From Promethearchaeota archaeon (GTDB lineage: Archaea; Asgardarchaeota; Lokiarchaeia; Sigyniarchaeales; SOKP01), in the NCBI GenBank assembly GCA_048938005.1, contig JBHLMQ010000002.1, positions 1 to 64,000 on the forward strand: a stretch of 64,000 bases of DNA, read 5' to 3'. The notes beneath the pieces are model-generated. The model worked only from the letters and a program-made list of their open reading frames with translations, had not been told where the DNA came from and did not search any database. Positions within the stretch are counted from its first letter, which is position 1; each line of letters opens with the position of its first letter. Positions 1 to 14,510 of this stretch are shown here, one piece after another. The translations under genes and the position numbers were made by a program.

Positions 1-564
1 GATAATTGTAGATTCCATTGTTCCATATTTAACTACGCCGATGCCTGCTTTTCCTGGAGTTGCAATAAAGCCTCCTACACATGAAGTTTTAAAACTAGTT
101 GGGAAAGTTTTTGGTTCAAGTCCATAATCAGATAGCGCTTCTATTAAATTTAGCCAAGAAATTCCACTTCCTACTTTTACTGTCATTTTCTCTTGATTTA
201 TTTCATGAACTTTATTTAATCTACGTATATCTATAATTACTCCCCCCATTGAAGGTGTTGCTGAGGAAAAACATGAAGTCCCAGCGGCTCGAATCGTTAT
301 TGGGACACTTAGTTCTCTGCATTTTTTTATGGCTAGTGATAATTCATTAGTGCTAGCTGGACGTATAACATAACTAGCTAAATATTTTTTCTTAAATTTA
401 TAATGATATGCTGGTAGAGAAGTAAGATCTGCTGAGGCAGATTCGAGTTCAAAAGGATTTGTGCTCACATGATAAGGAGATATAAATTCTAAAAATTGAT
501 GCTCAAGATCTTTATCTCTACCTTTCTTAGTATTACTTTTCATATTATTATTAGATTGGACCAT
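1..564 (-). CDS. FAD-linked oxidoreductase (GlcD/D-lactate dehydrogenase-like), N-terminal part; runs off the window start
   Basis: Manual translation from ATG at 564 with GGTGG SD upstream: MVQSNNN...VIRPASTNEL...PITIRAAGTSCFSSATPSMGGVIIDIRRLNKV...VKVGSGISW...SCVGGFIAT...KYG. This is the FAD_binding_4 pattern. Not in the ORF track. Confidence 0.85.
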   Translation of the reverse strand, partial: MVQSNNNMKSNTKKGRDKDLEHQFLEFISPYHVSTNPFELESASADLTSLPAYHYKFKKKYLASYVIRPASTNELSLAIKKCRELSVPITIRAAGTSCFSSATPSMGGVIIDIRRLNKVHEINQEKMTVKVGSGISWLNLIEALSDYGLEPKTFPTSFKTSCVGGFIATPGKAGIGVVKYGTMESTII

Positions 565-586
565 TTTGAAACACCACCTAAAATTA

Positions 587-1459
587 TTAAATTAAAAATA
601 AATTGGAGTTTAGAAAATAACCTAGTAAGAAAGCACCCCACCAACTAACTAAAGTTATATATCCTGTGATTTTTGCTTGTTTTCTCTCAGCTGCAATTCC
701 AAACAGCATACTTAAAAAACCAGTTATTAACCCAATCGATCCAAGGATTATATGAGGTAGATGATAAACTAAATCATAGCCCCCAAGCCAAGCTTCCGCA
801 GGTATTTTTATTATGGCAAGAACTACATTAATAACTGTTAAAATCCATGACCCACCAGCGAGTATACCATGAACTTTTACAAATTTATTTTCATTAACCA
901 AAACTAGGACAGTTGCAATAGAAACCATTAATAAGGCTGGTAATCCTAAATATAAACCTAAATGGTCAAATATAATAGACCAATCAAATCCACGAGGCGC
1001 GACACCTCCAACATTGATTATAATTTCTTGATAAGCAAAATTTATTTGTCCATGCGCGTCATTTCCAGCGATTATAAAAATTGTATATTCTTCATTATCT
1101 GCCGGGGTTGTTACATTAAAAGAAACTAGAATTGAATTAGGATTTGGATCGAAGTCATATATTGAAGTTTCATTAATTCTTTCTGTTGTAGGTGATATTA
1201 CAAATTTATCATTATCTTTAGCTCCAGGGATTGCTTGAACAAATAAATTTAACCCAGTAGCAGTTATGTTAAAAGTAATGTTAGAGGAGGCATTAGCTTG
1301 AATCACACTTGGAGCAGAAGTTCCAATAGTATATCCTGTTGAATTATGGCATGTATCATGCGTATCTCCAAAACCTGGTCTTCCAGTTCCATAAATAAGA
1401 ATTGATATAATCATCAAACCTATAATACAAGTCAAAAAAATAGGAATTTTCTTTCTCAT
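587..1459 (-). CDS. Exported beta-domain protein with HxxCH motif and C-terminal 4-TM His-containing (cytochrome b-like) domain
   Basis: Signal peptide, then RPGFGDTHDTCHN, a beta-rich domain, and about 4 TM helices with His in FDHL, KVHG and YHLPHII. Confidence 0.6.
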   Translation of the reverse strand: MRKKIPIFLTCIIGLMIISILIYGTGRPGFGDTHDTCHNSTGYTIGTSAPSVIQANASSNITFNITATGLNLFVQAIPGAKDNDKFVISPTTERINETSIYDFDPNPNSILVSFNVTTPADNEEYTIFIIAGNDAHGQINFAYQEIIINVGGVAPRGFDWSIIFDHLGLYLGLPALLMVSIATVLVLVNENKFVKVHGILAGGSWILTVINVVLAIIKIPAEAWLGGYDLVYHLPHIILGSIGLITGFLSMLFGIAAERKQAKITGYITLVSWWGAFLLGYFLNSNLFLI

Positions 1460-1656
1460 GATTACTAATATCCCCGATTTGAAATATTTTTATTACTCTA
1501 TGAGTAATTATTTTTATATCTTCTTTATATAATTTAAAAATCATAAGTTTTTTAAAAGAATATAGCAAAAATTGCACCTAATTTCTGCGTATATGTTTTA
1601 ATTTTAAAAATCTTTATTAAAATTCTTAAATAATAAATTCTAGGTGTTTTTTTTTA

Positions 1657-3351
1657 ATGTTTAGTAATATATCTATAAAAAAGACTGTCGCTATTAATTT
1701 GAGCTTAATTTTTATCTTTATAATTATAATACCTCTATTACTCAATTTAATAGAATTAAGTTATAGAATTATTTTTATATCGTTTCTAGGTACCTTTTTA
1801 ATCATTTTTCTAATTATAATAGTGATCTTAGACCTTATTCTATTAATTGTTAAAAAAAGAAATGCTTACTTTTTATCAGTTTTATCTATGAGTTTCTCGT
1901 TGATTTTGTTTTTACTTATGGTTTATAGTTTTTTAAATAATATATATAAGATTATATATGTGTGGAGTTTTAGCAATAATACCCTTCCTATAGTTTATAA
2001 AATTGTTGCTGTTTGGGCTGGTGAAGAAGGATCCATCATGACTTGGATGCTATTTAATACAATAATAATTAATTTATTTAGAATGGGGAATAGAAATAAA
2101 GAAGATCTTATCTTTATTCGATCTGCTATTATGTCATCAATAATTCTATCCGTTTTTTTGATAATATTATTGTATTTGAACCCTTTTAAACTCCAATCTT
2201 CTTCTCCTTCTGATGGATTAGGTTTAAGTCCACTTTTAATATCTCCCTTTATGATTTGGCATCCATTTTTCACATTTATTGCATATGGTATTTTTCTCAT
2301 TCCATTTACAATTACTATCGCAGAAATTTTGTCAAGAAATACAACTCCTTTAGGGCCATTTCAACAAAATTTTTATAAATTTACTTTAAAGTTTGGATGG
2401 TTAGTTCTTACATTAAGTATTGGATTAGGCGCATATTGGGCTAAAATTGCCTTAACTCCATGGGGTAGATATTGGGGTTGGGATCAGGTTGAGACGGTTT
2501 CGCTTATTCCATGGTTTTTTATTACTGCTTACTTTCATACGATGCCATTTCAAAAGAAAAATCCAAATCTAGTGAAAATAAATTTGGTATTAATATTTAT
2601 TGCTATTATTTTCTCTACACTAATTACAAGAGCAGGAATATCACCCATCCATTCTTTTACCGGAGTATCTGAATTAATTATCTGGTTAACTATAATCGGA
2701 TTAATTTTAACAGTTTTTTCTCTCTATGTAATATACATTGTTCTTGATTATGTATTACAGGAATATAGAAAAACGAAACTTCTCTTTGATTACTTGAGTT
2801 ACATATTTTTATTTAGTTTATCGTTTGTATGCATTTTTGGGCTTTTTGTTACACCTTTAACAATTATGCTATCATATTTTTTTCCCATAAACATAATTTA
2901 TATAGGGCCAGATTTTTTTATGATAACTACATTAATATTAGCTATTTGTTTGGCTTTATCATTAACATTTTGTAATACTTACGGAAAAATTGGGACAAAA
3001 TTAATAATATACTTAATAATTATAGTCTTTGCTATTCAATCAATATTCTCAATCATATTATTAATTTATCTTGATGTTTGGATAAACCCTTTAATAGCAA
3101 TATTTTTTACGGCACTAATAGTCTCGATTTGGTCTATCATAAAAAATTTAAATTTTAAGAAAGGAATCAAACATTTTTTCAAAATAAATTCTAAAACAAT
3201 AATTCATGCTGGAATCTCATTTATCTTAATAGGATTTTTAATAAATCAGAATTATTGGATTTTTCAAGATATTTTTTATATCACAGGATTTATTTTTCTA
3301 TTGAGCGGGATAATTCCATCAATCATAATGACCCTTTTTGTTAAGCACTGA
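1657..3351 (+). CDS. ccmF: Cytochrome c maturation heme lyase CcmF (short form)
   Basis: Motifs WAGEEGS, GLSPLL..WHPFF, LGAYWA..WGRYWGWDQVE (WWD), AYFH, ITRAG..IHSF and IIHAG. Confidence 0.93.
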   Translation: MFSNISIKKTVAINLSLIFIFIIIIPLLLNLIELSYRIIFISFLGTFLIIFLIIIVILDLILLIVKKRNAYFLSVLSMSFSLILFLLMVYSFLNNIYKIIYVWSFSNNTLPIVYKIVAVWAGEEGSIMTWMLFNTIIINLFRMGNRNKEDLIFIRSAIMSSIILSVFLIILLYLNPFKLQSSSPSDGLGLSPLLISPFMIWHPFFTFIAYGIFLIPFTITIAEILSRNTTPLGPFQQNFYKFTLKFGWLVLTLSIGLGAYWAKIALTPWGRYWGWDQVETVSLIPWFFITAYFHTMPFQKKNPNLVKINLVLIFIAIIFSTLITRAGISPIHSFTGVSELIIWLTIIGLILTVFSLYVIYIVLDYVLQEYRKTKLLFDYLSYIFLFSLSFVCIFGLFVTPLTIMLSYFFPINIIYIGPDFFMITTLILAICLALSLTFCNTYGKIGTKLIIYLIIIVFAIQSIFSIILLIYLDVWINPLIAIFFTALIVSIWSIIKNLNFKKGIKHFFKINSKTIIHAGISFILIGFLINQNYWIFQDIFYITGFIFLLSGIIPSIIMTLFVKH

Positions 3352-3537
3352 ATTTCAAATCACAGATCATACTCCGATGGTTTTAAATTATAACTATTGA
3401 TGAAATCTCTCTCCAATTCATGTTAATAAAAAGAATATCCAAATTTAGAAGAAAAACTAAATAGCAATTATTTTTTTACTTTTAATTCCTTCAAATTATT
3501 ATAATTTTTAATTTTCATAATAAATAGGATTCAAATT

Positions 3538-4251
3538 ATGGTTAAATCCGATAAAATTTTAATAAATTGTATTAACCTATCAAAACAATATGGATATTTT
3601 TTTGCCCTCAAAAATAATTCTTTTAATATTAAAAAGGGTACAATATTTGGGATCGCTGGAGCGAATGGAGCGGGAAAAACAACCCTTATTAAAATTTTAT
3701 CAGGATTAGTTAAACCTACTTTGGGAAGTGTTGAAATAGGGGGCATGAATTATGAAGATAATTCAACAATTATACATCAAAATATTGGTATTACAACAGA
3801 TGAGTCTTTTCTATATGAGGAATTAACCATCTTTGAAAATTTAAAATTCTATTGCAATTTACATTTAATTTTTGAAAAAAGAGAAATTAAGCAGAAAATT
3901 GACGAATTAGTCGAAAAATTCAACCTTACAGATTGGATTAATGAACCTGTAAAAAATCTATCCCATGGAATGAAACAAAAGGTAGAATTGATAAGAACAG
4001 TAATCCATAGTCCAATGATATTATTCTTAGATGAACCTTTTTCTGGTTTAGATTATGTTGCAACAGATAAGCTAATTAAATTTATTAAAGAAAAAAATCA
4101 AAAAAATAATGTTACAATAATTCTTACTACTCATAAAATTGAATTATTTCAACAAATATGCAATGATTTGATAATCCTAAGAAAAGGTAAAATTGTAAAG
4201 ACTATAAAAGATAAAGAATTTAATGAAATTGAAATTGAGTCGCTATTTTAA
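3538..4251 (+). CDS. ccmA: ABC ATPase CcmA
   Basis: Walker A GANGAGKTT, signature LSHGMKQK, Walker B LFLDEPF; lies between ccmF and ccmB. Confidence 0.85.
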   Translation: MVKSDKILINCINLSKQYGYFFALKNNSFNIKKGTIFGIAGANGAGKTTLIKILSGLVKPTLGSVEIGGMNYEDNSTIIHQNIGITTDESFLYEELTIFENLKFYCNLHLIFEKREIKQKIDELVEKFNLTDWINEPVKNLSHGMKQKVELIRTVIHSPMILFLDEPFSGLDYVATDKLIKFIKEKNQKNNVTIILTTHKIELFQQICNDLIILRKGKIVKTIKDKEFNEIEIESLF

Positions 4252-4263
4252 AGAGGTGCTTTT

Positions 4264-4989
4264 TTGAAATCAGAAAAAATATCGGTAAAATTAAGATTGA
4301 AACAATTTAGAACTATACTAGTGAAAGATATTAAATCTGAAGTTCGACAATTGAGTGATCTGTTATCCGTAATTCTTTTTAATATAATCTCAATTTTTAT
4401 ATTTTCATCTGTTTATAATTTTGGTACCCAATATCAGAATATGCCTTTAGAAATTTTTGTGATACAAAATTGGTTAATTATCTTTTTTACTCTTATCTAT
4501 ATTATGGCAAAATTATTCATTAAAGAAAAGGAGTCCGGCACAATTGGTGGCTTAACTTCATCTCCAATCTCTCCAAATTTAATTCTTTTCAGTAAAACTA
4601 TATACTGTTTAATTTTATTGATTTCGATAGAGTCAATTCTCTATCTATTTAGTTTTTTTTTATCTGCACCGTTAGTTGGCAATATAAATTCTCTTCAAGT
4701 ATTAACCTATATAATTTTAGGAATCGTTTTACCTAGTTTTGATTTATCTATATGCGGAAGTTTGGTTTCAGCTTTATCAATGTATGCTAAAAATAAGTCT
4801 TTTGTCTTACCGATTTTATTATTTCCTTTAATTATTCCTATTACTACTCCAATAGTTTCATTAAATATAAAATTATTAGAAGGCGTATTGATATCTGCCC
4901 TAATTTATGAAATAGGATTTTTGTTTGCTCATATAATCCTTATGATTTCACTCTTGACTTTAATTTCTCATATACTTTTATATGACTAA
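4264..4989 (+). CDS. ccmB: Heme exporter membrane protein CcmB
   Basis: KDIKSEVR, LFIKEKESGT and LPILLFPLIIP motifs; about 6 TM helices. Confidence 0.88.
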   Translation: MKSEKISVKLRLKQFRTILVKDIKSEVRQLSDLLSVILFNIISIFIFSSVYNFGTQYQNMPLEIFVIQNWLIIFFTLIYIMAKLFIKEKESGTIGGLTSSPISPNLILFSKTIYCLILLISIESILYLFSFFLSAPLVGNINSLQVLTYIILGIVLPSFDLSICGSLVSALSMYAKNKSFVLPILLFPLIIPITTPIVSLNIKLLEGVLISALIYEIGFLFAHIILMISLLTLISHILLYD

Positions 4990-4994
4990 AATCT

Positions 4995-5333
4995 CTAACT
5001 ACACTGGGTAAGAATCTGTTCTGCCACTAAAATTAGGTTAGAACTAAACAGCCCTATTACAACAACTTCAATTCCATTTTTTAGCGCACTAGGAGGAGTA
5101 ATACCATTAATATCAATAAAAATACTATAATCGCCTTCAGTTAAATTAAAATCATTGTTGATGAATCCCTCAACAATACCGATAACTTGAATTTCTTTAT
5201 TATGATATTGAGCAGGATTTGACGCTACTTGAGATACTTTAAGGTAGGGACGTGTGTTTATTGACACTAATGCAATTATAACACTAATAGAAATAACTAC
5301 ACCAACAATTGCTATGATTTTAGATTTTTTCAA
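4995..5333 (-). CDS. ccmE: Heme chaperone CcmE, Cys type, C-terminally truncated
   Basis: N-terminal TM, YLKVSQV, IQVIGIV, G.EVVVIG and AEQILTQCS-stop (Cys-type CcmE normally ends about A..IL.KCPSKY). Confidence 0.85.
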   Translation of the reverse strand: MKKSKIIAIVGVVISISVIIALVSINTRPYLKVSQVASNPAQYHNKEIQVIGIVEGFINNDFNLTEGDYSIFIDINGITPPSALKNGIEVVVIGLFSSNLILVAEQILTQCS

Positions 5334-5347
5334 ATTTTACACCTGCC

Positions 5348-5494
5348 TTATAAGTTTTCTAAACTTTTAATACTTTTTTTAACTTTTTTTAACTTTAGCT
5401 TTGGATATAAAATTAGGATGATTAAAATAGCCCAGAATAACAAATAACTTATACCTATTGTTATTAAATCCTGACTCAGATATTCTATTGACAT
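5348..5494 (-). CDS. ccmD: CcmD-like 48-aa single-TM protein
   Basis: Manual translation MSIEYLSQDLITIGISYLLFWAILIILILYPKLKLKKVKKSIKSLENL. It sits exactly between ccmC and ccmE, with a Y..FW TM segment and a basic tail. Below the ORF-track cutoff. Confidence 0.8.
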   Translation of the reverse strand: MSIEYLSQDLITIGISYLLFWAILIILILYPKLKLKKVKKSIKSLENL

Positions 5495-5500
5495 TTTTAA

Positions 5501-6307
5501 TTATTCCCTCAATAAACGAATTTGTTTAATTTTTTCTAATTCTTCTCTTTTATCATCTAATAAAACAAGTTCTTTTACAATATACACAAATAAGATCGTC
5601 ATTGCAATTAAATTGAAAAATAACATAAACAATTTCAAAGGATCCCAATAAATATTTCCAGGTTCCCCAGGATTTGGATTAATTAAAGGATGTAAACTTG
5701 TAAAAACTATTGCTGAAATGTAGCTTAATGGAACTGTTGGAAATAACACAATACCTAATATAGCTGTTATTCTCGCTTTTTTTTCCTTATCTTCAATCAT
5801 TTTACCAAATATCAAATAAGATAAATAAGAAATGAATAATACTAATGTCATAGTCTGTCGCGCATCACCCCATTGCCAAAAAATATTATTATAATCTCCC
5901 GATGTAGCATTGAACCAGAGCGATCCTGTTATAAGAGTAAATCCAGAAAAAAAAACTCCAACAAGAACACTATTTTTACCCCAGTGAATCCAATTAGTTT
6001 TACGAGACTTTAAGTATAGAATATGAAAAATAAAACTAATTCCAAATGAAAAATATGAAAGCCATGCTCCAGATACATGGTAAAAAAAAATAGCATAGAC
6101 AATTCGATTAGGTGACCCCCATATAATTAGGTTAAATGAAGTTAATAACAAAATTAATGATAAATTTATAATTAGCATTACAAGTGAAATTATTAACAAT
6201 AAATGATCCTTAAGGATATTCAATAAATTTGATTGATTTTTCTTATCTAACTCCATTATATTCCTTAAGTTTGCATTATATTTTTTCAGTTCATTTATTT
6301 TAGACAT
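5501..6307 (-). CDS. ccmC: Heme translocase CcmC
   Basis: IFFYHVSGAW, ITGSLW...WQWGDARQT (variant WWD) and SLHP; about 6 TM helices. Confidence 0.9.
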   Translation of the reverse strand: MSKINELKKYNANLRNIMELDKKNQSNLLNILKDHLLLIISLVMLIINLSLILLLTSFNLIIWGSPNRIVYAIFFYHVSGAWLSYFSFGISFIFHILYLKSRKTNWIHWGKNSVLVGVFFSGFTLITGSLWFNATSGDYNNIFWQWGDARQTMTLVLFISYLSYLIFGKMIEDKEKKARITAILGIVLFPTVPLSYISAIVFTSLHPLINPNPGEPGNIYWDPLKLFMLFFNLIAMTILFVYIVKELVLLDDKREELEKIKQIRLLRE

Positions 6308-6391
6308 TTAAAACATTTATTTTTTTATTTAAAATTTTAAGGTTTATAAAAAAAAAATTGTAATTAATTTTTTAAATTCAATTATTTTTGG

Positions 6392-7060
6392 TTATTTTTT
6401 TCTATGTTTAACCACAAAAATGATTATCCCAAAACCAAACAACCCAAAAGCTACGTAAAGAAAAATATTATTAATGGGATATATCATTGTGAGAGACACT
6501 ATTGTTAAACTTCCATCTGTTACCATGACTGAGATTGTAGTAGCCAAATAAATAATAGGCTCCGAACCGCTTGTAATATTTGCAGCATTTATAACAGCAA
6601 CAACTAAATCATATGTTCCATCTGCTTCAGGAGCCAAGACTCTAAATCTCAACGGATTAACTGTATTTCCGTTTGAATCTAAGGCAATTTCCCATATACC
6701 AATACCCCAATAATCAGTTACGCCATTAACTGTATTCTGATCCATTCCTAGTCCAAATTCCTTATTATCACCAAGTTCATAGGGAATTCCGATAGAAAAT
6801 GTTCCCGATCTATTATTTGATGGAAGCGCATCTGTAAATCCTTGTATTGAAGCAATAAGTGTAATTAATTTGCCAGAAGTAGAAGATGATACTTCAAGTG
6901 TTCCGCTAGAAGCAACTCCACTCGAATTGTGACAACCAGGCGCACTATGCGATGCTCCTTCAAACTCAATGATGTAAGAAGGACGTGCAATTGTATATCC
7001 TATTATTCCCAGCATCATTGTAGTCAAAACAACAAATATAATCATTTTACTTTTCTTCAA
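6392..7060 (-). CDS. Exported membrane-anchored protein with Hx4CH motif
   Basis: Signal peptide ending TIA, then RPSY...ASHSAPGCHN, GDN.EF, VLAP..DG.Y and a C-terminal TM with basic tail. Confidence 0.65.
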   Translation of the reverse strand: MKKSKMIIFVVLTTMMLGIIGYTIARPSYIIEFEGASHSAPGCHNSSGVASSGTLEVSSSTSGKLITLIASIQGFTDALPSNNRSGTFSIGIPYELGDNKEFGLGMDQNTVNGVTDYWGIGIWEIALDSNGNTVNPLRFRVLAPEADGTYDLVVAVINAANITSGSEPIIYLATTISVMVTDGSLTIVSLTMIYPINNIFLYVAFGLFGFGIIIFVVKHRKK

Positions 7061-7736
7061 TTGTACTCAACTCCCTTTGTTTTTTTCTTTTACGAATTGT
7101 GATAATCATGACAAGAACAGTAGTAATAAATCCTATAGAAATAATGAAGAAAATGTTGAATCCTGGAATATCGCCACCAGCTGTAGATTTAACTGTAACT
7201 GTTATTTCTGTTTTAATATAATTGAATTCATGTACATCACCAAATGATTCTCCACCTTCTACTGCAACTAAAATTAAAGTATGAGACCCTCCTGTGACTG
7301 GGGCATAAACTATAAGAGTTACTGTATTATTTGCATTCCCAGAGCCATCTAATCCAACTTCAAATATGGTAGAAGCAAATTCACCAGTTAAATTATGAAC
7401 TCCAAAAAAAAATCCATGGTTATCCCCAATTCGAGCTGATACACCTACAGTTACATGCATATTTGCTGCTACTGTAAAACCCGTTATGTCTAAGGTTACA
7501 TTAAATTGTGTCCCTGGCTCTAAGATAACTGATGTAGTATTTGCTGGTGTAACAGTAGCGGATAATGTACCTGCGGCTTCTGTATATGTTCCTGCATGAC
7601 AATTGGCTCCGCCATGGTCAGTTTCTTCCCATTCAGTTAGATAATCAGGCCAAGCACTAACAGTTCCTACAATTGCAAAAATAAAGAAGGATAGAATGAA
7701 CAATTGCAAAAATTTCTTGTTCATATTCTTAATCAC
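7047..7736 (-). CDS. Exported protein with Hx4CH motif and IPGF (PGF/Loki-CTERM-type) sorting signal
   Basis: Signal peptide ending VSA, then WPDY...TDHGGANCHAG, GDN.GF, VYAP..GG and DIPGF-TM-RKRKK. The real start may be the second Met. Confidence 0.68.
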   Translation of the reverse strand: MIKNMNKKFLQLFILSFFIFAIVGTVSAWPDYLTEWEETDHGGANCHAGTYTEAAGTLSATVTPANTTSVILEPGTQFNVTLDITGFTVAANMHVTVGVSARIGDNHGFFFGVHNLTGEFASTIFEVGLDGSGNANNTVTLIVYAPVTGGSHTLILVAVEGGESFGDVHEFNYIKTEITVTVKSTAGGDIPGFNIFFIISIGFITTVLVMIITIRKRKKQRELSTIEEK

Positions 7737-8065
7737 TTTCTAATTTTTAGATTTTTATTTTTTTTAAAAAGATTACTTTAAACTTAAAAAAAAATAGCTT
7801 ACTTATAAGCATTACTTAATTTGAATAATTTAAACTTCAGAAATAAGTCTTGTTTCAAATAGCGACAATTTTAAGTAAAAAGTTTAAATATGAAACACGG
7901 ATTTCACTCTTTTATTATTATTTAACCATTAATTTTTTTAATTTATCCTAAAATCATATAGATTCTTATGTAAAAGTTCAAATTTTTATCCTTTAAAGAG
8001 AAATAGGAAAGAAAATAACCAAAATATTTGGTGGATGTAAATTTAATTAGGATTTAATTCTAATT

Positions 8066-8629
8066 TTAAAAATTACCACAACCATTGCATTCTCCATCGA
8101 GAAATGCCGTACAATCATTACAAATGTTCCCACATTTATTTTCTTTGCTTATACCGCTAAAAAGATTAAGGGGAAGAAATTGAGGTATTAGGATTTCGGA
8201 TGTGAACATTACCATAGAGTGTAATATTCCTTTTTTATTTGTAGGTCCGCAATAATTGATATATCGATGAATTACATCAATACTTTGTCCTAAAATACCA
8301 AATACCAAATTATATTGCCCCGTAACTTGAGCAAGTAAGAATACTCTTGGACATTCCGAATAAGCTTCAACCATTTTTTTCAGTTCTTCATAATTTTCCA
8401 TCTCAATTAAGATAAATGCGATAAAGTAGTTTAAATTCTTAATGTTAATATTTCCTTGTATTTTAAGTATACGTTCTTCTTCTAATTTTGAAATTCGTTT
8501 TGCTATACCAGCATGACTCATTGTTTCTTTATTTGATTTTAAAACGTTTAAACTCAAAGAACTTAAGCTTTCTCGACCATTTTCATATAAAAATTTTAAA
8601 ATTTGTTTATCAATTTGATCTAAAGACAT
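8066..8629 (-). CDS. Lrp/AsnC-family regulator with Cys-rich C-terminal tail
   Basis: LDQIDKQIL..L...GR HTH, RISKLE, VTGQYNL RAM domain, tail CGNICNDCTAFLDGECNGCGNF. Confidence 0.88.
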   Translation of the reverse strand: MSLDQIDKQILKFLYENGRESLSSLSLNVLKSNKETMSHAGIAKRISKLEEERILKIQGNINIKNLNYFIAFILIEMENYEELKKMVEAYSECPRVFLLAQVTGQYNLVFGILGQSIDVIHRYINYCGPTNKKGILHSMVMFTSEILIPQFLPLNLFSGISKENKCGNICNDCTAFLDGECNGCGNF

Positions 8630-9034
8630 AATTATATTATTAGAAATGGTTATATATAAAAAGAATGATTCTCTATAAGGATTTAGGAAAATGTAAACAG
8701 TATATTGCTTTTTACTTTCATTCTACAACAAAAATCCATAAAAAATTTCAATTTGAAAGCTGAAAATTTATATAATAATAAAAATCAATAACCGGATACT
8801 TTTTTTTTAAATAAAGATGTGAAAATTATTACTAATCATTAAGAATGATGAATACAAACAAAAAGTTGCCGAGATATTTCAAGAATATTCTAGGAGCGAT
8901 GGAACTGTTAATATAAAAGAATAATCTGCTTATTTAATCATTAAATATATTAGCAAACTGAATTTTTATAATCAACAAATTTTAAAAACTAGTAATAAAG
9001 TTATAATTAATTAAAATAGTCTCAATTTGTAAAA

Positions 9035-9598
9035 ATGCTATTAGATAATATTGATCGACAAATTATAGCTGAATTGTTTAAAGAAGGTCGTCAAAGCCTA
9101 ACAAATTTAGAAAAAGTAATTTATAAATTTGGTGATGAAACTATGAGTCATACAGGAATAGCAAAACGAATTTCAAAATTAGAGGAATCTGAAGTACTCA
9201 AGGTTCAAGCTAACTTAAACCTTAACAAACTAAAATATAAAGCTCTTTTCATATTAATCGAAATGAGTAATTTTGATGAAGTACAAAATATTATTAAAGC
9301 CTATTCTGAGTGCCCAAGAGTTTTTCTGCTTGCTCAAGTTACGGGACAATATAATTTGATATTAGGAATCATCGGGCAAAATGTTGAAGTGCTTCATCGA
9401 TATATCAATTATTGCGGACCTACAAATAAAAAAGGGATACTTCACTCTGCTGTAATATTTGTATCCGATCTCATCAATCCAAGATTTTTACCAATTAATT
9501 TATTCAGCCAAAAAAGTCAAGAAGAGAAATGTGGGAATATATGTAATGATTGTGCAGCATTTCTTGATGGAAAATGCAATGGTTGTGGTAACTTTTAA
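9035..9598 (+). CDS. Lrp/AsnC-family regulator with Cys-rich tail, close paralog of 8066..8629
   Basis: Same length (187 aa). Shares identical blocks AYSECPRVFLLAQVTGQYNL, HRYINYCGPTNKKGILHS and KCGNICNDC.AFLDG.CNGCGNF. Confidence 0.88.
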   Translation: MLLDNIDRQIIAELFKEGRQSLTNLEKVIYKFGDETMSHTGIAKRISKLEESEVLKVQANLNLNKLKYKALFILIEMSNFDEVQNIIKAYSECPRVFLLAQVTGQYNLILGIIGQNVEVLHRYINYCGPTNKKGILHSAVIFVSDLINPRFLPINLFSQKSQEEKCGNICNDCAAFLDGKCNGCGNF

Positions 9599-10174
9599 GT
9601 TTATACTCTAAATGGTATTCCTAATTTTTAAATCAAAATATTATAGGCTTGGCATCTTGGTTTTCAATTCTTTTTAAATATATATATTTTTAAAGGAATA
9701 ATAAGCTATTTAGGTTCAAAATGTATATAATTTAAAAGATTTAGTTTTTCTTTTGTCATTTAATTTTTGAATAAACATTCGATATTTCAAATAGATGAAA
9801 ATTATAATTGGATTTTGAATCCTTAGCTTTAATTTAGCATCTTTGACTATTTTTTAAAATTAAAACCTTTAATTAACTTTTACCTACAATATTTTTTAGT
9901 AATAGTAAGATGAATATTGATCAGATTAATACAAAATTTTATTATTTGTTTAAATAAAAATTTAACTTCTAATTTGATAAAAGAAAGCGTTCTATAAGAG
10001 TCAATAAAATATTTTGAATATTTATTCATATTCATTAATTTAAATAAATATAACTAAATTTTAGATTAATCAGAAGTTTTTAATAAAGTTATGAATAAAT
10101 AAACTCAACTAATTAATTTATTACAAATTAGCTAACTTAATTATATAAAAAATACAATAAAAAATTGATAAAAA

Positions 10175-11497
10175 ATGGCTGTAAAAGTAGCATTCGTACA
10201 AAATTCTGATTGCTGGGGCTGTCATCAGAGTTTGCTTAATTTGCATTTAGGTTTACTCAATGTTCTCCCAGCATTAGAGATTGTCTATTGGCCAGCTGTA
10301 GTAGATTTCAAGTATGATTCGTTGAAAGCAAGAGAAGATGGTGAGATTCTGGTAGGTTTTATTGAAGGAAGTTTACGAACTAAACATGATGTTGCTCAGA
10401 CGAAACTACTCCGACAAAAAAGTGCTTTAATTATCGCATTTGGTAGTTGTGCATGTTATGGGAATGTGCATGGATTAGCTAACCAATGGAGTAAAGATGA
10501 ATTAGTCAAACGCAAATTTTCTGAGGTTGAAAGTATAGCTGATGAGAGCGGAGGAGAACCGATGATTAATACTCCCGGATTTACAGATAAGATAGTACCT
10601 GTGGATGAAATTATAAAAGTTGATGCTTACATGTCTGGATGTCCTCCAAAACCAGAAGCTATTGCTAGTGCAGTTGTTTTCTTATTAGGGCAAAAACCAT
10701 TTCCAATGAATGATTTAGCATTTTGTAACGATTGTAGTATCAAAGATAATTGTTTATTGGATAAAGGGACATTATGTTTTGGGTCAATTACTAGTATCGG
10801 TTGCAGTTTAAAATGTACAAGTGATGGTACGCCTTGTGTTGGTTGTTTTGGTCCTGCTAAGACTGTTGATTCTAGAGCTGAAAAGCTAAATAATATGGCA
10901 AATAATCTTGGAGCTCTCGATTCAGGGGATAAAAAAAGTCTTTACGAATTTTTACCTTTATTTTTAAATGTTCCTCTTATGGCTGGATTTGATCTTGCGG
11001 GTGATATTTTAAAACAAATAAAAAGGCGTGGTTCTCCTGAAACTCCTTTAGCGAATCTTCCTCCTACGACTGAAGAAATAGCTGGAAAGTTAATGGGATT
11101 CCTTAGAGATAATCGAGATTTCACAGAAAAATCAAATGTTTGTGACACTTGTCCAAGAATAATTGGAAGTAAATCAACAATGACAAGAGTTAAGCGTGAT
11201 TACGAAGGTCTTCCAAATATGGAGGATTGTTTTATAGAGCAAGGTTATATCTGTATGGGACCTGTTACTAATGCTGGTTGCGGTGGAATGTGTATAAAGG
11301 TTAATTCACCCTGTACTGGTTGTTTTGGTCAAACAGAATGGGGTGTTAATCAAGCAGAGCGATTTGCAGATACAGTGATTAAAGGATTTAATGTGAGTTT
11401 ATCAAAAGATGAATTATTGAGTCAAGTGAAAGATCATATAGGTACATTTGAGAAATTTACTTTAGCAGCAAATAGAAACTTTAAAGGAGGCGAATAA
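10175..11497 (+). CDS. mvhG: Group 3c hydrogenase small subunit (MvhG/VhuG) with duplicated C-terminal Fe-S module
   Basis: DCWGC, FIEGS, AFGSCACYG and GCPP motifs, then two CxxC..C..C.G..T..GC...C....PCxGCFG modules. Confidence 0.9.
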   Translation: MAVKVAFVQNSDCWGCHQSLLNLHLGLLNVLPALEIVYWPAVVDFKYDSLKAREDGEILVGFIEGSLRTKHDVAQTKLLRQKSALIIAFGSCACYGNVHGLANQWSKDELVKRKFSEVESIADESGGEPMINTPGFTDKIVPVDEIIKVDAYMSGCPPKPEAIASAVVFLLGQKPFPMNDLAFCNDCSIKDNCLLDKGTLCFGSITSIGCSLKCTSDGTPCVGCFGPAKTVDSRAEKLNNMANNLGALDSGDKKSLYEFLPLFLNVPLMAGFDLAGDILKQIKRRGSPETPLANLPPTTEEIAGKLMGFLRDNRDFTEKSNVCDTCPRIIGSKSTMTRVKRDYEGLPNMEDCFIEQGYICMGPVTNAGCGGMCIKVNSPCTGCFGQTEWGVNQAERFADTVIKGFNVSLSKDELLSQVKDHIGTFEKFTLAANRNFKGGE

Positions 11498-11500
11498 AAA

Positions 11501-12808
11501 ATGGGAAAAGAAATAGTTGTAGAACCTGTTACAAGATTAGAAGGGCATAATATGCTTAAAGTTATTCTTGGAGACGACGGAAATGTGCAAGATGTTCAAT
11601 TTAGTATTACTACTACAAGATTTTTTGAGAAATTTCTAGAAGGTCGTTATTGTGAACATATTCCAAGAATCACACCAAGAATTTGTGGAATTTGTCCAAT
11701 ACCACATCACCTAACACCTACAAAAGCAGTAGAAGATGCTTGGGGTGTTCAAATACCTCCTGCGGCATATAAACTACGTGAATTGTTACAGAACGCAAAA
11801 CAATATTCATCACATGCTTTACATTTCTATGCATTAGCGGCTCCTGACTTCTTATTAGGACCTTTTGCTGATCCTGCTTTAAGAAATGTAGTGCATGTAA
11901 TCAATCAGATGCCAGATGTGGGTGCTATGGCTTTAAAGATGATGGATTTTGGCCAAAAACTATGTGAGGCTGTTGGTGGTAAATCAGTTCATCCTATTTC
12001 TGCCATTGTTGGTGGTATGAAAAAGCCCTTGGATGAAGATGTACGTGATTTGTTCTTAAAACAAATTGAGGATCAGGTTGAATGGTCAAAAAAAACGGTT
12101 GAGATTGGATTAAAAGTTGTTGAAGATTACTGGGATGTTGTAGCAAACGTAGGAGTTGTTCCCACATATTATGTTGGTATGACTAAAAATGGAGTTCATG
12201 ATATTTATGATGGAGATATTCGTGTTGTATCCCCTAATGGAGAAAAATTTGATTATCCGCCACAAAAATATCTAGACGCCTTAGGAGAACATATACCAAA
12301 GCATTCTTATGCAACACACATGTATTATAAACCCGCTGGATATCCTGAAGGGATATATCGAGCAAATACATTAGCTATGATAAATTGTGCTGATAAAATG
12401 GCTACACCCTTAGCTGATGAAGCTCTACGGGCAATGAGAGAGAAAGTAGGTACAAATGTTATTCATCATACGTTTGCTTATCATTGGGCTCGATTAATTG
12501 AATTAGTTGAGTCTATTGAAATGATAGCAACACTCCTTCAAGATGATGATGTTGTTAATCCAGATTGCAAAACATTAGATGTACAACCTAGAGAAGGTAA
12601 TGGAGTAGGAATCACTGAAGCTCCACGTGGATTGCTTTTGTATAATATATGGTCAGATGCAGAAGGAATATGCAAAAAGGCAAATCTTTTAGTCGCAACG
12701 AACCATAATATTGCCGGGATTGAAAAGACATTAATGCATGTTGCTAAACAAGTATTTGAAGACAAGGCACTTGATGGTTTAAAATTACCAGACCCATGGA
12801 TTAAATAA
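11501..12808 (+). CDS. vhuA: Group 3c hydrogenase large subunit lacking the C-terminal Ni motif (VhuA-type)
   Basis: EPVTRLEGH, RFFEKFL.GR, RICGICPIPH (L1) and EAPRGLL; ends LPDPWIK with no DPCxxC. Confidence 0.92.
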   Translation: MGKEIVVEPVTRLEGHNMLKVILGDDGNVQDVQFSITTTRFFEKFLEGRYCEHIPRITPRICGICPIPHHLTPTKAVEDAWGVQIPPAAYKLRELLQNAKQYSSHALHFYALAAPDFLLGPFADPALRNVVHVINQMPDVGAMALKMMDFGQKLCEAVGGKSVHPISAIVGGMKKPLDEDVRDLFLKQIEDQVEWSKKTVEIGLKVVEDYWDVVANVGVVPTYYVGMTKNGVHDIYDGDIRVVSPNGEKFDYPPQKYLDALGEHIPKHSYATHMYYKPAGYPEGIYRANTLAMINCADKMATPLADEALRAMREKVGTNVIHHTFAYHWARLIELVESIEMIATLLQDDDVVNPDCKTLDVQPREGNGVGITEAPRGLLLYNIWSDAEGICKKANLLVATNHNIAGIEKTLMHVAKQVFEDKALDGLKLPDPWIK

Positions 12809-13631: not shown

Positions 13632-14510
13632 ATGACAGAATATAAAATGTTTGAAGGATGTACGATTGGTAATAGAATTCCCTTTATTGAGGCTGCTTCA
13701 AGAAAAGTTTTTGATAAACTTGGTGTTGAAACTTCGCAAGCACCCTTTTCTTGTTGCCCAGATCCTACGGGTATAAAAAGCTTTGATAATGATGCTTGGT
13801 TAGCAATTGGTGCTAGAAATCTTTGTTTAGCAGAATCGGAAGGAAAAGATATTATATCACTGTGTAACGGATGTGCTAATACTTTAAGAGGAGTACAACA
13901 TCAATTAAAACATGATAGTTTAAAGAAAAAGAAAATCAACTCAGAACTTGCAAAAATCGGAAAAGAATTCAAGGGCTCTATAGACGTAAAGCATTTTGTC
14001 GATGTTTTAAAAGATGAAGTAGGTGTGGATAAAATTAAAGGCGCTATTACAAAACCCTTAACTGGTCTAAAAGTGGCTTGCCATCCTGGATGCCATTATA
14101 TGCGACCAGCAGAATGGATGGAATCTGATGATCCGTTGCGACCAGAAAATTTAAAAAACATGGTGGCTGCTTCTGGTGCTACAGTAGTAGATTATGAAGA
14201 ATTAGCACTTTGTTGCGGTTCAGCTGTAACTAATGCTTATGAAGAGCATGGAATGGCAAACTTAAAGAAAAAAATGGATAGTATTAAAAAGGCAGGAGCA
14301 GATGTAATTGTAGTAAATTGTCCTGCTTGTTTTCAACAATTTGATACAAAACAGAGAGATCTATCAAAGATGTTTGAAATTGAATATGGTATCCCTATTC
14401 TATATCTAACCGAATTATATGCTTTAGCAATGGGATTTAGTCCTGATGAATTAGGATTAAAATTTCATCGTACGAGATTATCTGAAGTATTAGAAAAGCT
14501 TGGTTTATAG
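13632..14510 (+). CDS. hdrB: Heterodisulfide reductase subunit B
   Basis: Two CCG domains: FEGC..SCCP..ARNL..CNGC and HPGCH..CCG..CPACFQQFD. Confidence 0.93.
   Translation: MTEYKMFEGCTIGNRIPFIEAASRKVFDKLGVETSQAPFSCCPDPTGIKSFDNDAWLAIGARNLCLAESEGKDIISLCNGCANTLRGVQHQLKHDSLKKKKINSELAKIGKEFKGSIDVKHFVDVLKDEVGVDKIKGAITKPLTGLKVACHPGCHYMRPAEWMESDDPLRPENLKNMVAASGATVVDYEELALCCGSAVTNAYEEHGMANLKKKMDSIKKAGADVIVVNCPACFQQFDTKQRDLSKMFEIEYGIPILYLTELYALAMGFSPDELGLKFHRTRLSEVLEKLGL

Follow-up and report, generated by a model that had tools for sequence, protein, structure and literature searches.

Cytochrome c maturation (ccm) genes lie near the beginning of a 64,000-nucleotide stretch of DNA (hereafter the window) from a Promethearchaeota archaeon, Promethearchaeota being the NCBI phylum name for the Asgard archaea. 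Three putatively exported proteins bracket these genes, here called P1, P2 and P3, and each has histidine at the position where a c-type cytochrome has the first cysteine of its heme-binding motif. Aligned relatives that retain this cysteine turn what was a guess, a cytochrome c site with histidine replacing the first cysteine, into a result of sequence comparison. We favour, with moderate confidence, the reading that P1, P2 and P3 are extracytoplasmic, monoheme cytochromes c that would be matured by the Ccm proteins and hold heme through a single thioether. The observation generalises, since the genes recur as a conserved cluster in two genera that belong to a single Asgard family. The window opens a contig (C9) in a genome of 3.72 Mb, assembled in 101 contigs with 29.8% G+C and estimated to be 95% complete and 7% contaminated. 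Close homologues come from metagenome-assembled genomes labelled Promethearchaeota, Lokiarchaeia and similar.

The motif in P1, P2 and P3 and its cysteine-type relatives

The motif reads H34-D-T-C37-H38 in P1 (CAT GAT ACA TGC CAT, 1360..1346 on the minus strand), H38-SAPG-C43-H44 in P2 (6949..6929) and H41-GGAN-C46-H47 in P3 (7616..7596). As HDTCH, HSAPGCH and HGGANCH, all three fall outside the classical CxxCH pattern and its Cx3-4CH and CxxCK variants. P2 and P3 contain one cysteine each and P1 contains two, the additional C11 lying within its N-terminal hydrophobic segment; the mature region of each protein thus has a single cysteine, the one inside H-x(2 or 4)-C-H. A preliminary description of this DNA had reported three flanking proteins of this kind without CxxCH, and had read the upstream histidine of P1 as an ordinary CAT codon and not a hidden TGA. 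Both observations are borne out at the nucleotide level, the motif histidines of all three genes being encoded by CAT or CAC with no recoded stop. Contigs from four sequencing runs in four studies (sediment and mangrove metagenomes) cover the region, and the long metagenome pieces that span all three motifs show no differences from the window.

The three proteins are homologous, as had also been proposed. P2 and P3 are clear paralogues (BLASTP E = 2e-16), P1 matches P2 weakly in a pairwise alignment that spans the motif (E = 2e-4), and the three families align in register over the motif, a DN..F block and later D..N, P and Y/H-T-L blocks, although the pairwise comparison of P1 with P3 is not significant (0.19). 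Throughout the 3.72-Mb genome, a hydrophobic N-terminus followed by H-x(1-6)-CH within the first 90 residues was found in P1, P2 and P3 as the only real open reading frames (ORFs); four others with the same combination, 63-94 amino acids long, were judged spurious. At any position, H-x2/4-CH occurs in 28 of the 3,471 ORFs that reach 100 amino acids or more, mostly as HDPCH or HYGCH sites of cytoplasmic CCG-domain proteins.

We examined the motif across homologues of each protein. For the P1 family, the best 120 of 217 matches were listed: 80 have H-x2-CH, 34 H-x4-CH, one H-x-CH and one Y-x-CH, and the four further entries are fragments without the N-terminus. Histidine therefore stands at x2 or x4 in 114 of the 116 N-terminally complete P1 homologues among the matches listed. 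The 33 listed members of the P3 family comprise 30 with x2 (mostly HGSCH), one with x3, one with x4 and one fragment, the single x4 member coming from the window's own cluster, and the 27 listed for P2 divide into 23 with x2 and four with x4. Taken over the three families, 170 of 175 N-terminally complete homologues retain the motif, and none of these 180 listed homologues contains CxxCH. Conservation of the upstream histidine and of the CH pair thus holds in all three families. The form of the motif needs some adjustment: H-x(2 or 4)-CH is real, whereas the x4 spacing of P2 and P3 in the window belongs to a minority and the family consensus is HxxCH. Both CxxCH and Cx4CH are known spacings for heme c motifs. 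In 61 His-type genes from the named loci described below, the upstream histidine is encoded by CAT in 56 and CAC in five, the cysteine by TGT in 41 and TGC in 20, and the putative axial histidine by CAT in 54 and CAC in seven. Since synonymous codons vary in this way, the motif residues are kept by selection on the protein.

When 301 genomes of the phylum were searched with a P1 profile, the matches fell into three families, designated f1 (the window's own), f2 and f9 (a sister family); a further family, f24, is considered below. In f9 the site is of the cysteine type: 30 loci in 13 genomes yielded 29 distinct homologues, of which 26 carry C-x(2-4)-CH, two C-x5-CH, one C-x-CH and none the histidine form. 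When P1 was compared by BLASTP with a 399-amino-acid f9 protein carrying CSDCH, both the transmembrane module (6e-12) and the N-terminal domain (2e-9) aligned, and the CH of P1 paired with the second cysteine and the histidine of CSDCH. A profile of P2 and P3 likewise aligned in hhalign with a 192-amino-acid CGNCH protein (95% probability, E = 2e-8). The f9 homologues sit in ccm clusters together with GlcD-like and CCG genes, stand-alone membrane modules and a DUF2231 protein, and these clusters include a 463-amino-acid protein with seven CxxCH motifs and Cytochrome_C554/C552 Pfam matches (locus L014, 1803-3194). The DUF2231 membrane protein (L013, 10995-11495) lies beside a small CGNCH protein. 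Because the f9 homologues have CxxCH or Cx4CH where the proteins of the window have the histidine form, the shared domain is a cytochrome c domain in which the first cysteine became histidine in the lineage of the window.

A wider profile search over 1.84 billion representatives returned 235 proteins at E <= 1e-3. The 147 new relatives listed comprise 70 of the His type, 26 of the Cys type, 34 with CH and another or no upstream residue (C-x-CH, Y-x-CH or none), and 17 that are siteless or long multidomain proteins. We constructed a tree of the domain without the motif from 121 sequences, after dropping seven of 128 that lacked CH. One half of the tree holds the P1 type together with f9 (32 with Cys, 13 with His, 10 with another residue and four with Tyr at the first position), and the other half holds the P2/P3 type (51 with His, seven with another residue and four with Cys). 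At least five changes of the His state are required on branches with good support, and 25 when every state is counted. As judged from this alignment and tree, CH hardly varies, whereas the residue at the first position has been exchanged repeatedly; forms with Tyr would fit a two-step codon path, TGY to TAY to CAY. In one low-GC metagenomic locus (L113, 1897-5311), a 751-amino-acid surface protein gene with HTGNCH lies beside a 338-amino-acid P1-like gene with CNSCH, between HdrB/C-like genes, and therefore His-type and Cys-type members can share a genome. A metagenome scan with an alignment of P1-like proteins from a clade sister to P1 yielded eight short loci, none extending to ccmE, in which members of an 'xxxCH' type (…DELGCH) and a CNSCH member adjoin ccmF.

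The N-termini of P1, P2 and P3 are hydrophobic and, as judged by inspection of the sequence, signal-like. A [small]-x-P site stands at a fixed distance before the cysteine in all 32 P3, all 26 P2 and all 108 P1 sequences compared, and in 69 of 125 wider representatives. The predicted mature N-terminal residue is Trp in P3 and variable in P1, and the junction is A|H-P in 17 of the 26 P2 homologues. The N-terminal domain of P1 (131 amino acids) has six N-x-S/T sequons, against a genome-wide frequency of 0.65 per 100 amino acids, and looks immunoglobulin (Ig)-like, a suggestion that comes from atlas-search leads only. Pfam gave no family for P1, P2 or P3 and no consistent family over 128 superfamily members, and a PDB sequence search with a profile of the three families gave only antibody-type Ig noise (best E 0.0024). 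The NCBIfam model NF041895 (choice-of-anchor V) matches P1 at 20.8 bits, against a cut-off of 42 bits, aligning residues 32-138 with profile positions 25-136. It matches 37 of the 128 superfamily members (best E 5e-10), these matches starting at the motif, and the individually scanned Cys-type members reach at most 25 bits over the same profile region. A loose profile search of the window's genome with this model returned no match, missing even the weak one to P1, and a literature search on 'choice-of-anchor' proteins found nothing on domain V. The tail of P3 resembles the Loki-CTERM signal (NF033507; 14.2 bits against a cut-off of 19.9), as do, weakly, 12 of 41 P2/P3 members (best E 8.8e-5). 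Ten of these 41 also match TIGR04186, 'putative ATP-grasp-modified RiPP', and one homologue is so named by its source; the match falls in a Thr/Ser-rich beta-strand region and is probably spurious.

The ccm cluster and the neighbourhood of P1

The cluster and its immediate neighbours comprise the following genes.

1..564, minus strand: 5' portion, 188 codons long, of a gene for a GlcD-like FAD-linked oxidase (PF01565 FAD_binding_4, 4.8e-27), directly 3' of P1
587..1459, minus strand: P1, 290 amino acids, N-terminal signal or anchor, putative extracytoplasmic Ig-like domain opening with the HDTCH motif, and four-helix C-terminal membrane module
1657..3351, plus strand: ccmF (heme lyase), 564 amino acids (PF01578, 1.1e-23)
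3538..4251, plus strand: ccmA-like ABC ATPase (PF00005 ABC_tran, 1.6e-32), position kept in 24 related loci
4264..4989, plus strand: ccmB-like ABC permease (PF03379, 6.3e-10)
4995..5333, minus strand: variant ccmE (PF03100, 2.5e-8)
5348..5494, minus strand: ccmD-like ORF, 48 amino acids with a single transmembrane segment, assigned from position and size alone
5501..6307, minus strand: ccmC (PF01578, 5.8e-14)
6392..7060, minus strand: P2, 222 amino acids, predicted signal peptide, putative Ig-like domain and C-terminal transmembrane anchor with a basic tail
7047..7736, minus strand: P3, 229 amino acids, predicted signal peptide (…VSA|WP), putative Ig-like domain and Loki-CTERM-like tail
8066..8629, minus strand, and 9035..9598, plus strand: two divergent genes for 187-amino-acid Lrp/AsnC-like regulators with Cys-rich C-terminal tails

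P3, P2, ccmC, the ccmD-like ORF and ccmE run head to tail on the minus strand, with a 14-nt overlap of P3 and P2 followed by gaps of 84, 6 and 14 nt, and P1 and ccmF are divergently oriented. The genes ccmA, B, C, E and F are thus present together, as expected of an archaeal System I, and their order recurs in related loci; neither ccmH nor ccmG was found within the cluster. The Ccm proteins of the window are divergent members of their families, since they pass the Pfam gathering scores and stay below the NCBIfam cut-offs for CcmF/NrfE, CcmC and CcmE (TIGR00353, 134 bits against 569; TIGR01191, 66.7 against 186; NF009727, 33.7 against 126). A promoter and terminator scan of positions 1-10200, which targets bacterial signals, was uninformative because its counts lay near expectation (76 promoter-like sites against 70.6 expected, and six terminator-like sites against 3.3).

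To characterize the linkage we compared 27 named Asgard species-representative loci, of which 25 have a full P1. The usual order is (Lrp-like)-P3-P2-ccmC-E-B-A-ccmF-P1-FAD oxidase-iron-sulfur protein. ccmF adjoins P1 in all 24 loci that have upstream DNA, the FAD oxidase and then the CCG protein follow 3' of P1 in 25 of 25, and every protein with the N-terminal domain in the 27 loci is of the His type. Twelve of the loci (L081-L083, L085, L087, L095-L097, L099, L100, L102 and L104) insert between ccmA and ccmF a gene, absent from the window's cluster, for a surface protein of 800-1,500 amino acids. This protein starts with a signal peptide and a single N-terminal His-type domain, continues in Ig/PKD-like repeats and finishes in a C-terminal anchor. 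At the level of genomes, the same 16 of 69 in f1 (the window's included) hold P1 with its N-terminal domain, PF01578 proteins corresponding to ccmC and ccmF, and ccmE. These belong to two genera, with seven genomes from g1 and nine from g4; the other 53 are without any ccm gene, and no f1 genome retains ccm alone. Four more f1 genomes, likewise without ccm, encode the membrane module solely as a stand-alone paralogue. The 38 f9 genomes in which P1-like matches occur all fall within the 40 of that family that have ccm, and 17 genomes of f24 have ccm. The tight linkage to ccm that the preliminary description had anticipated for homologues is therefore a regular feature of the cluster.

Two of the Ccm proteins depart from their relatives in the sister family. 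The residues presumed to handle heme are kept: CcmF aligned to that of E. coli K-12 retains the WWD motif and four histidines (H173, H261, H303 and H491), and CcmC retains the histidines that align with E. coli H60 and H184, where we take the E. coli numbers to be those of the heme-handling residues and where the E. coli residues at these numbers are His. In CcmE, C111 aligns with E. coli H130, and the protein ends ...LTQCS without the Tyr of a CxxxY motif. The CcmE ends are QCS in 15 and QCST in one of the 16 f1 genomes, whereas C(P/S)SKY is found in 13 of 13 f9 genomes and CLSKF in one f24 sequence. CcmF in f1 has 564 amino acids against 685 in f9 and is without a C-terminal extracytoplasmic stretch of about 120 residues. 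A study of M. acetivorans calls CxxxY universal in archaeal CcmE and reports that the Cys is required (PMC9084895), and in E. coli heme is carried covalently on CcmE (PMC3268396). The co-variation of CcmE with the substrate motif, seen in two lineages only, is the strongest hint that the transfer chemistry differs.

The C-terminal module of P1 has four helices by hydropathy and four histidines, H166, H197, H233 and H236, that are invariant in the P1 proteins of f1, in f1-like and f9 stand-alone copies, and in the f9 fusions. Judged from these residues, the module probably binds at least one heme b. It matches no known cytochrome b family (there is no Pfam match, and PF02665 was not found in the genome); the look-alikes given by the atlas, which are leads only, are DUF420, CopD, DUF2231 and b561-like four-helix bundles. 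Some members of a sister clade of P1-like proteins carry long inserts in the cytoplasmic loop.

The FAD-oxidase gene next to P1 runs off the start of the contig. Contig C40 ends in 77 bases identical to the start of C9 and the FAD-oxidase frame continues across the join, so the two contigs are neighbours. On C40 a gene for a 447-amino-acid CCG/4Fe-4S protein follows (C40:40396-41739, minus strand). The full-length orthologue of the oxidase in the same genus is GlcD-like, and the orthologue of the CCG protein has two CCG domains (6.5e-32) and a Fer4 / 4Fe-4S dicluster domain, with TfrB, LdhH, GlpC, GlcF, TmcB, HmcF and DsrK as its best sub-threshold NCBIfam matches. Stand-alone four-His modules also occur without ccm (L103 and L105; G071, G141, G264 and G270). 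The one in L103 has the same FAD-oxidase and CCG genes behind it, so the membrane module and the dehydrogenase also exist without the cytochrome-type domain.

On the other side of the cluster, the Lrp/AsnC-like paralogues end in …CGNICNDC.AFLDG.CNGCGNF, and 17 of the 27 related loci have one copy or more. The pair may be redox-, metal- or heme-sensing regulators. They were also considered as the siroheme decarboxylase AhbA/B and rejected, since PF17805 was not found and their best matches are LysM/Lrp/AsnC regulators. Beyond the regulators lie genes for an MvhG/MvhA-type [NiFe] hydrogenase (10175-11497 and 11501-12808) and an HdrB-like CCG protein (13632-14510); an MvhG-like gene holds this position in nine of the 27 loci.

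Cytochrome clients, heme supply and alternative readings

The preliminary description had called for a whole-genome count of exported CxxCH proteins, and none was found in 3.72 Mb. CxxCH occurs in 36 of 5,790 ORFs of at least 60 amino acids, none of which showed a signal-like N-terminus on inspection; all look cytoplasmic and include hydrogenase small subunits, Fe-S (iron-sulfur) and zinc-finger proteins and radical SAM enzymes. When 23,330 frames were scanned for CxxCH, Cx3-4CH and CxxCK irrespective of start codons, 49 matches lay in frames that also contain a hydrophobic 17-mer, and on inspection none was an exported candidate. The class I cytochrome c family PF13442 was found in none of 71 genomes of the window's family, and cytochrome bd, a NarI/HdrE-type cytochrome b (PF02665) and a futalosine-pathway marker were not found in the window's genome. 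HemB is present in 18 of 301 genomes of the phylum, with none of 68 in f1, one of 76 in f9 and one of 21 in f24. Passages of a preprint on Asgard oxygen metabolism (10.1101/2024.07.04.601786) assign heme biosynthesis and respiratory complexes to Heimdallarchaeia without bringing up ccm in lineages of the Loki type.

These counts bear on several other explanations of the cluster. One holds that the ccm genes serve ordinary CxxCH cytochromes encoded in the unassembled portion of the genome, about 5%, and that P1, P2 and P3 are mere neighbours. The assembly, with its 101 contigs and the completeness and contamination given above, leaves some room for this, but the lack of any exported CxxCH candidate, the absence of PF13442 across the family, the synteny in 24 of 24 loci and the head-to-tail run of P3 and P2 with ccmC, the ccmD-like ORF and ccmE make it highly improbable. 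Another is that the surface-exposed, possibly Ig-like proteins of a heme auxotroph bind environmental heme and pass it to CcmE, CcmF and CcmC, much as the NEAT-domain receptors of Gram-positive bacteria capture heme. The absence of HemB in f1, where a heme-handling machine is nevertheless kept, would accord with this, as would the fold suggested by the atlas leads and the large surface proteins of the 12 loci, whose single motif domain at the presumed distal tip suits capture better than wiring. We consider it very unlikely all the same: the homologues are plain CxxCH proteins, and the lineage they come from encodes multiheme cytochromes as well, the fusion of P1 to a membrane module encoded with a dehydrogenase points to a redox function, and no heme importer came up, though none was searched for. 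It is also rather unlikely that the motif is a Cu, Zn or Fe site, or a structural remnant, on surface Ig-like proteins, with ccm serving otherwise or decaying. His, Cys and His do make a good metal-binding set, P1, P2 and P3 have no Pfam family, the genome is without heme synthesis markers, cytochrome bd or NarI/HdrE, and the A|H-P junction common among P2 homologues recalls histidine-brace Cu sites. Against this, the same genomes keep the ccm and P1 genes and none keeps ccm alone, the heme-handling residues of CcmC and CcmF are all conserved, which speaks against decay, and the x2/x4 spacing rule is shared with the Cys-type homologues; nor is there a conserved histidine brace, since the N-terminal residue is Trp in P3 and variable in P1.

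Within the cytochrome reading itself there is a variant in which heme is held by two covalent links, the Cys thioether and a His-vinyl bond from the upstream histidine, which would be a new heme c linkage. The histidine stands exactly at the first-Cys position with the x2 and x4 spacings of the Cys-type homologues, it is conserved beyond what a dispensable position would show, and the loss of Tyr from CcmE co-varies with the switch to His. His130 of E. coli CcmE and His117 of cyanobacterial GlbN are precedents for His-vinyl bonds. In E. coli, moreover, a second nucleophile is needed to resolve the CcmE-heme-cytochrome intermediate (PMC3268396), and a histidine could serve. However, natural members with Tyr, or with no Cys, His or Tyr upstream, also adjoin ccmF, so a second covalent bond is not obligatory in the family, and the known His-vinyl bonds are few and formed by different routes; we regard the variant as unlikely. 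A broader proposal, in which System I has been re-tooled with a Tyr-less CcmE and His-type substrates, would have the histidine either form such a His-vinyl linkage beside the thioether or act as a leaving-group catalyst that frees heme from CcmE. Either way, heme-auxotrophic, hydrogen-metabolising archaea would own a hitherto overlooked, outward-facing electron-transfer module fed by a cytoplasmic 2-hydroxyacid-type dehydrogenase, a combination to which we give a small chance as a whole.

Several observations weigh against the reading of P1, P2 and P3 as single-thioether cytochromes. HemB, HemC and AhbA/B were not found in the window's genome, at its estimated completeness of 95%, and the best AhbD-like match reaches 199 bits against a cut-off of 500, so heme would have to be scavenged. 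In E. coli, cytochromes with a single Cys (XXXCH or CXXXH) serve the Ccm system very poorly as substrates and end in a trapped adduct of CcmE, heme and cytochrome (PMC3268396), which suggests that a second nucleophile helps to resolve the intermediate. Because the genomes are related and the genes form one physical cluster, the co-occurrence of ccm and P1 in 16 genomes reflects joint inheritance and loss and not 16 independent events. The coexistence of both types in L113 means that an altered CcmE may be unneeded for His-type proteins. In the membrane module of P1, hydropathy seems to place three of the four histidines towards the outer face and the fourth towards the inner, with no classical two-heme b arrangement evident, and some members of the sister clade of P1-like proteins (P0213, P0226 and relatives) have lost two or three of the four. 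Lastly, the merged alignment shows no conserved Met or second His as a distal ligand. In cytochrome f, which begins Tyr1-Pro2, the N-terminal amino group is the sixth ligand, and by analogy we conjecture that the mature N-terminus could be a ligand here. The missing HemB counts little against the His lineage specifically, because the ccm-positive, Cys-type families f9 and f24 share the defect; the cytochrome-bearing Asgard lineages appear to be heme auxotrophs.

The preliminary description had proposed a dedicated maturation system that attaches heme by one thioether, or by one thioether and a His-vinyl bond. As far as comparative genomics reaches, this proposal is strongly supported: conservation of the motif, homology to CxxCH proteins, linkage and co-occurrence with ccm and the co-varying CcmE are shown, whereas heme binding, its covalent nature and bond type, the direction of electron flow and the partners are what we infer. 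If P1, P2 and P3 are indeed single-thioether cytochromes, CcmABC, the CcmD-like ORF, CcmE and CcmF would export heme and fix it to the single Cys by one thioether bond, presumably at the 4-vinyl group, with the His after the Cys as axial ligand. The upstream His might position the heme, aid its release from the Cys-type, Tyr-less CcmE, or bond the other vinyl. In P1 the heme domain would be joined to the four-His membrane module and work with the GlcD-like FAD dehydrogenase and the CCG protein, which resembles HdrD, GlcF and TmcB. Electrons could then pass from the cytoplasmic dehydrogenase through the membrane heme module to the outward-facing cytochrome, making up a transmembrane electron-transfer module. 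P2 and P3, together with the 800-1,500-amino-acid surface proteins of the relatives, would be surface-anchored redox partners.

Significance and comparison with known systems

Counting CxxCH motifs is the standard way to detect c-type cytochromes, and it misses P1, P2 and P3. Surveys of this kind would therefore count Loki-type Asgard archaea as free of cytochromes, although some have a complete maturation system. Our literature search, which lay outside supplements and subscription journals, found no description of HxxCH cytochromes or of ccm clients in Asgard archaea or Lokiarchaeia. If heme is bound, these proteins would be a natural exception to the two-cysteine rule of System I with an adapted CcmE of their own, and would offer a way into the unsettled question of how heme leaves CcmE; the conserved His at the first position would also raise the possibility of a new covalent heme bond. 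The relatives of the archaeal ancestor of eukaryotes are usually modelled as hydrogen or formate syntrophs. Some of them would then own a surface-exposed redox module, which bears on electron exchange with partners.

The nearest maturation system is the archaeal System I of M. acetivorans, which has the same ccmA, B, C, E and F set, a Cys-type CcmE and no ccmH (PMC9084895). There CcmE has CxxxY, whereas CcmE in the window's lineage stops one or two residues past the Cys and the cluster adds a ccmD-like ORF. The presumed substrates differ as well, with HxxCH in place of CxxCH, and the window's CcmF is about 120 residues shorter than that of f9. The mitochondrial cytochromes c and c1 of Euglenozoa, with (A/F)xxCH, have likewise replaced the first Cys and kept CH, implying one thioether; they are reported to have Ala or Phe at this position and a maturation that is not Ccm-based (PMC8262978), whereas here we find a conserved His, a possible Ig-like sandwich (atlas leads) and a System I cluster. 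Engineered single-Cys cytochromes presented to System I in E. coli belong to the same XXXCH class and are very poor substrates (PMC3268396); here XXXCH is a natural, conserved state that comes with an altered CcmE.

The f9 homologues (L013-L016 and L049-L078) share with P1 the domain, the position of the site, the four-His fusion and a neighbourhood of ccm, GlcD-like and CCG genes. They differ in having the canonical first Cys, C(P/S)SKY in CcmE, a CcmF of greater length and, in the vicinity, multiheme cytochromes. HdrDE, TmcABCD and DsrMK(JOP) place a cytoplasmic CCG iron-sulfur subunit on a cytochrome b in the membrane, to which some of these complexes add a periplasmic cytochrome c. The P1 neighbourhood likewise encodes a CCG iron-sulfur subunit with a membrane subunit, P1 being His-rich and carrying an outward-facing, putatively heme-type domain; in contrast, the P1 module has four helices, belongs to no cytochrome b family and is fused to a His-type c domain. 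Cytochrome f, a cytochrome c built as a beta-sandwich, carries its motif close to the N-terminus. P1, P2 and P3 may resemble it, being apparently beta-rich and putatively exported, with the motif 10-15 residues past [small]|x-Pro and, in P2 and P3, a C-terminal membrane anchor.

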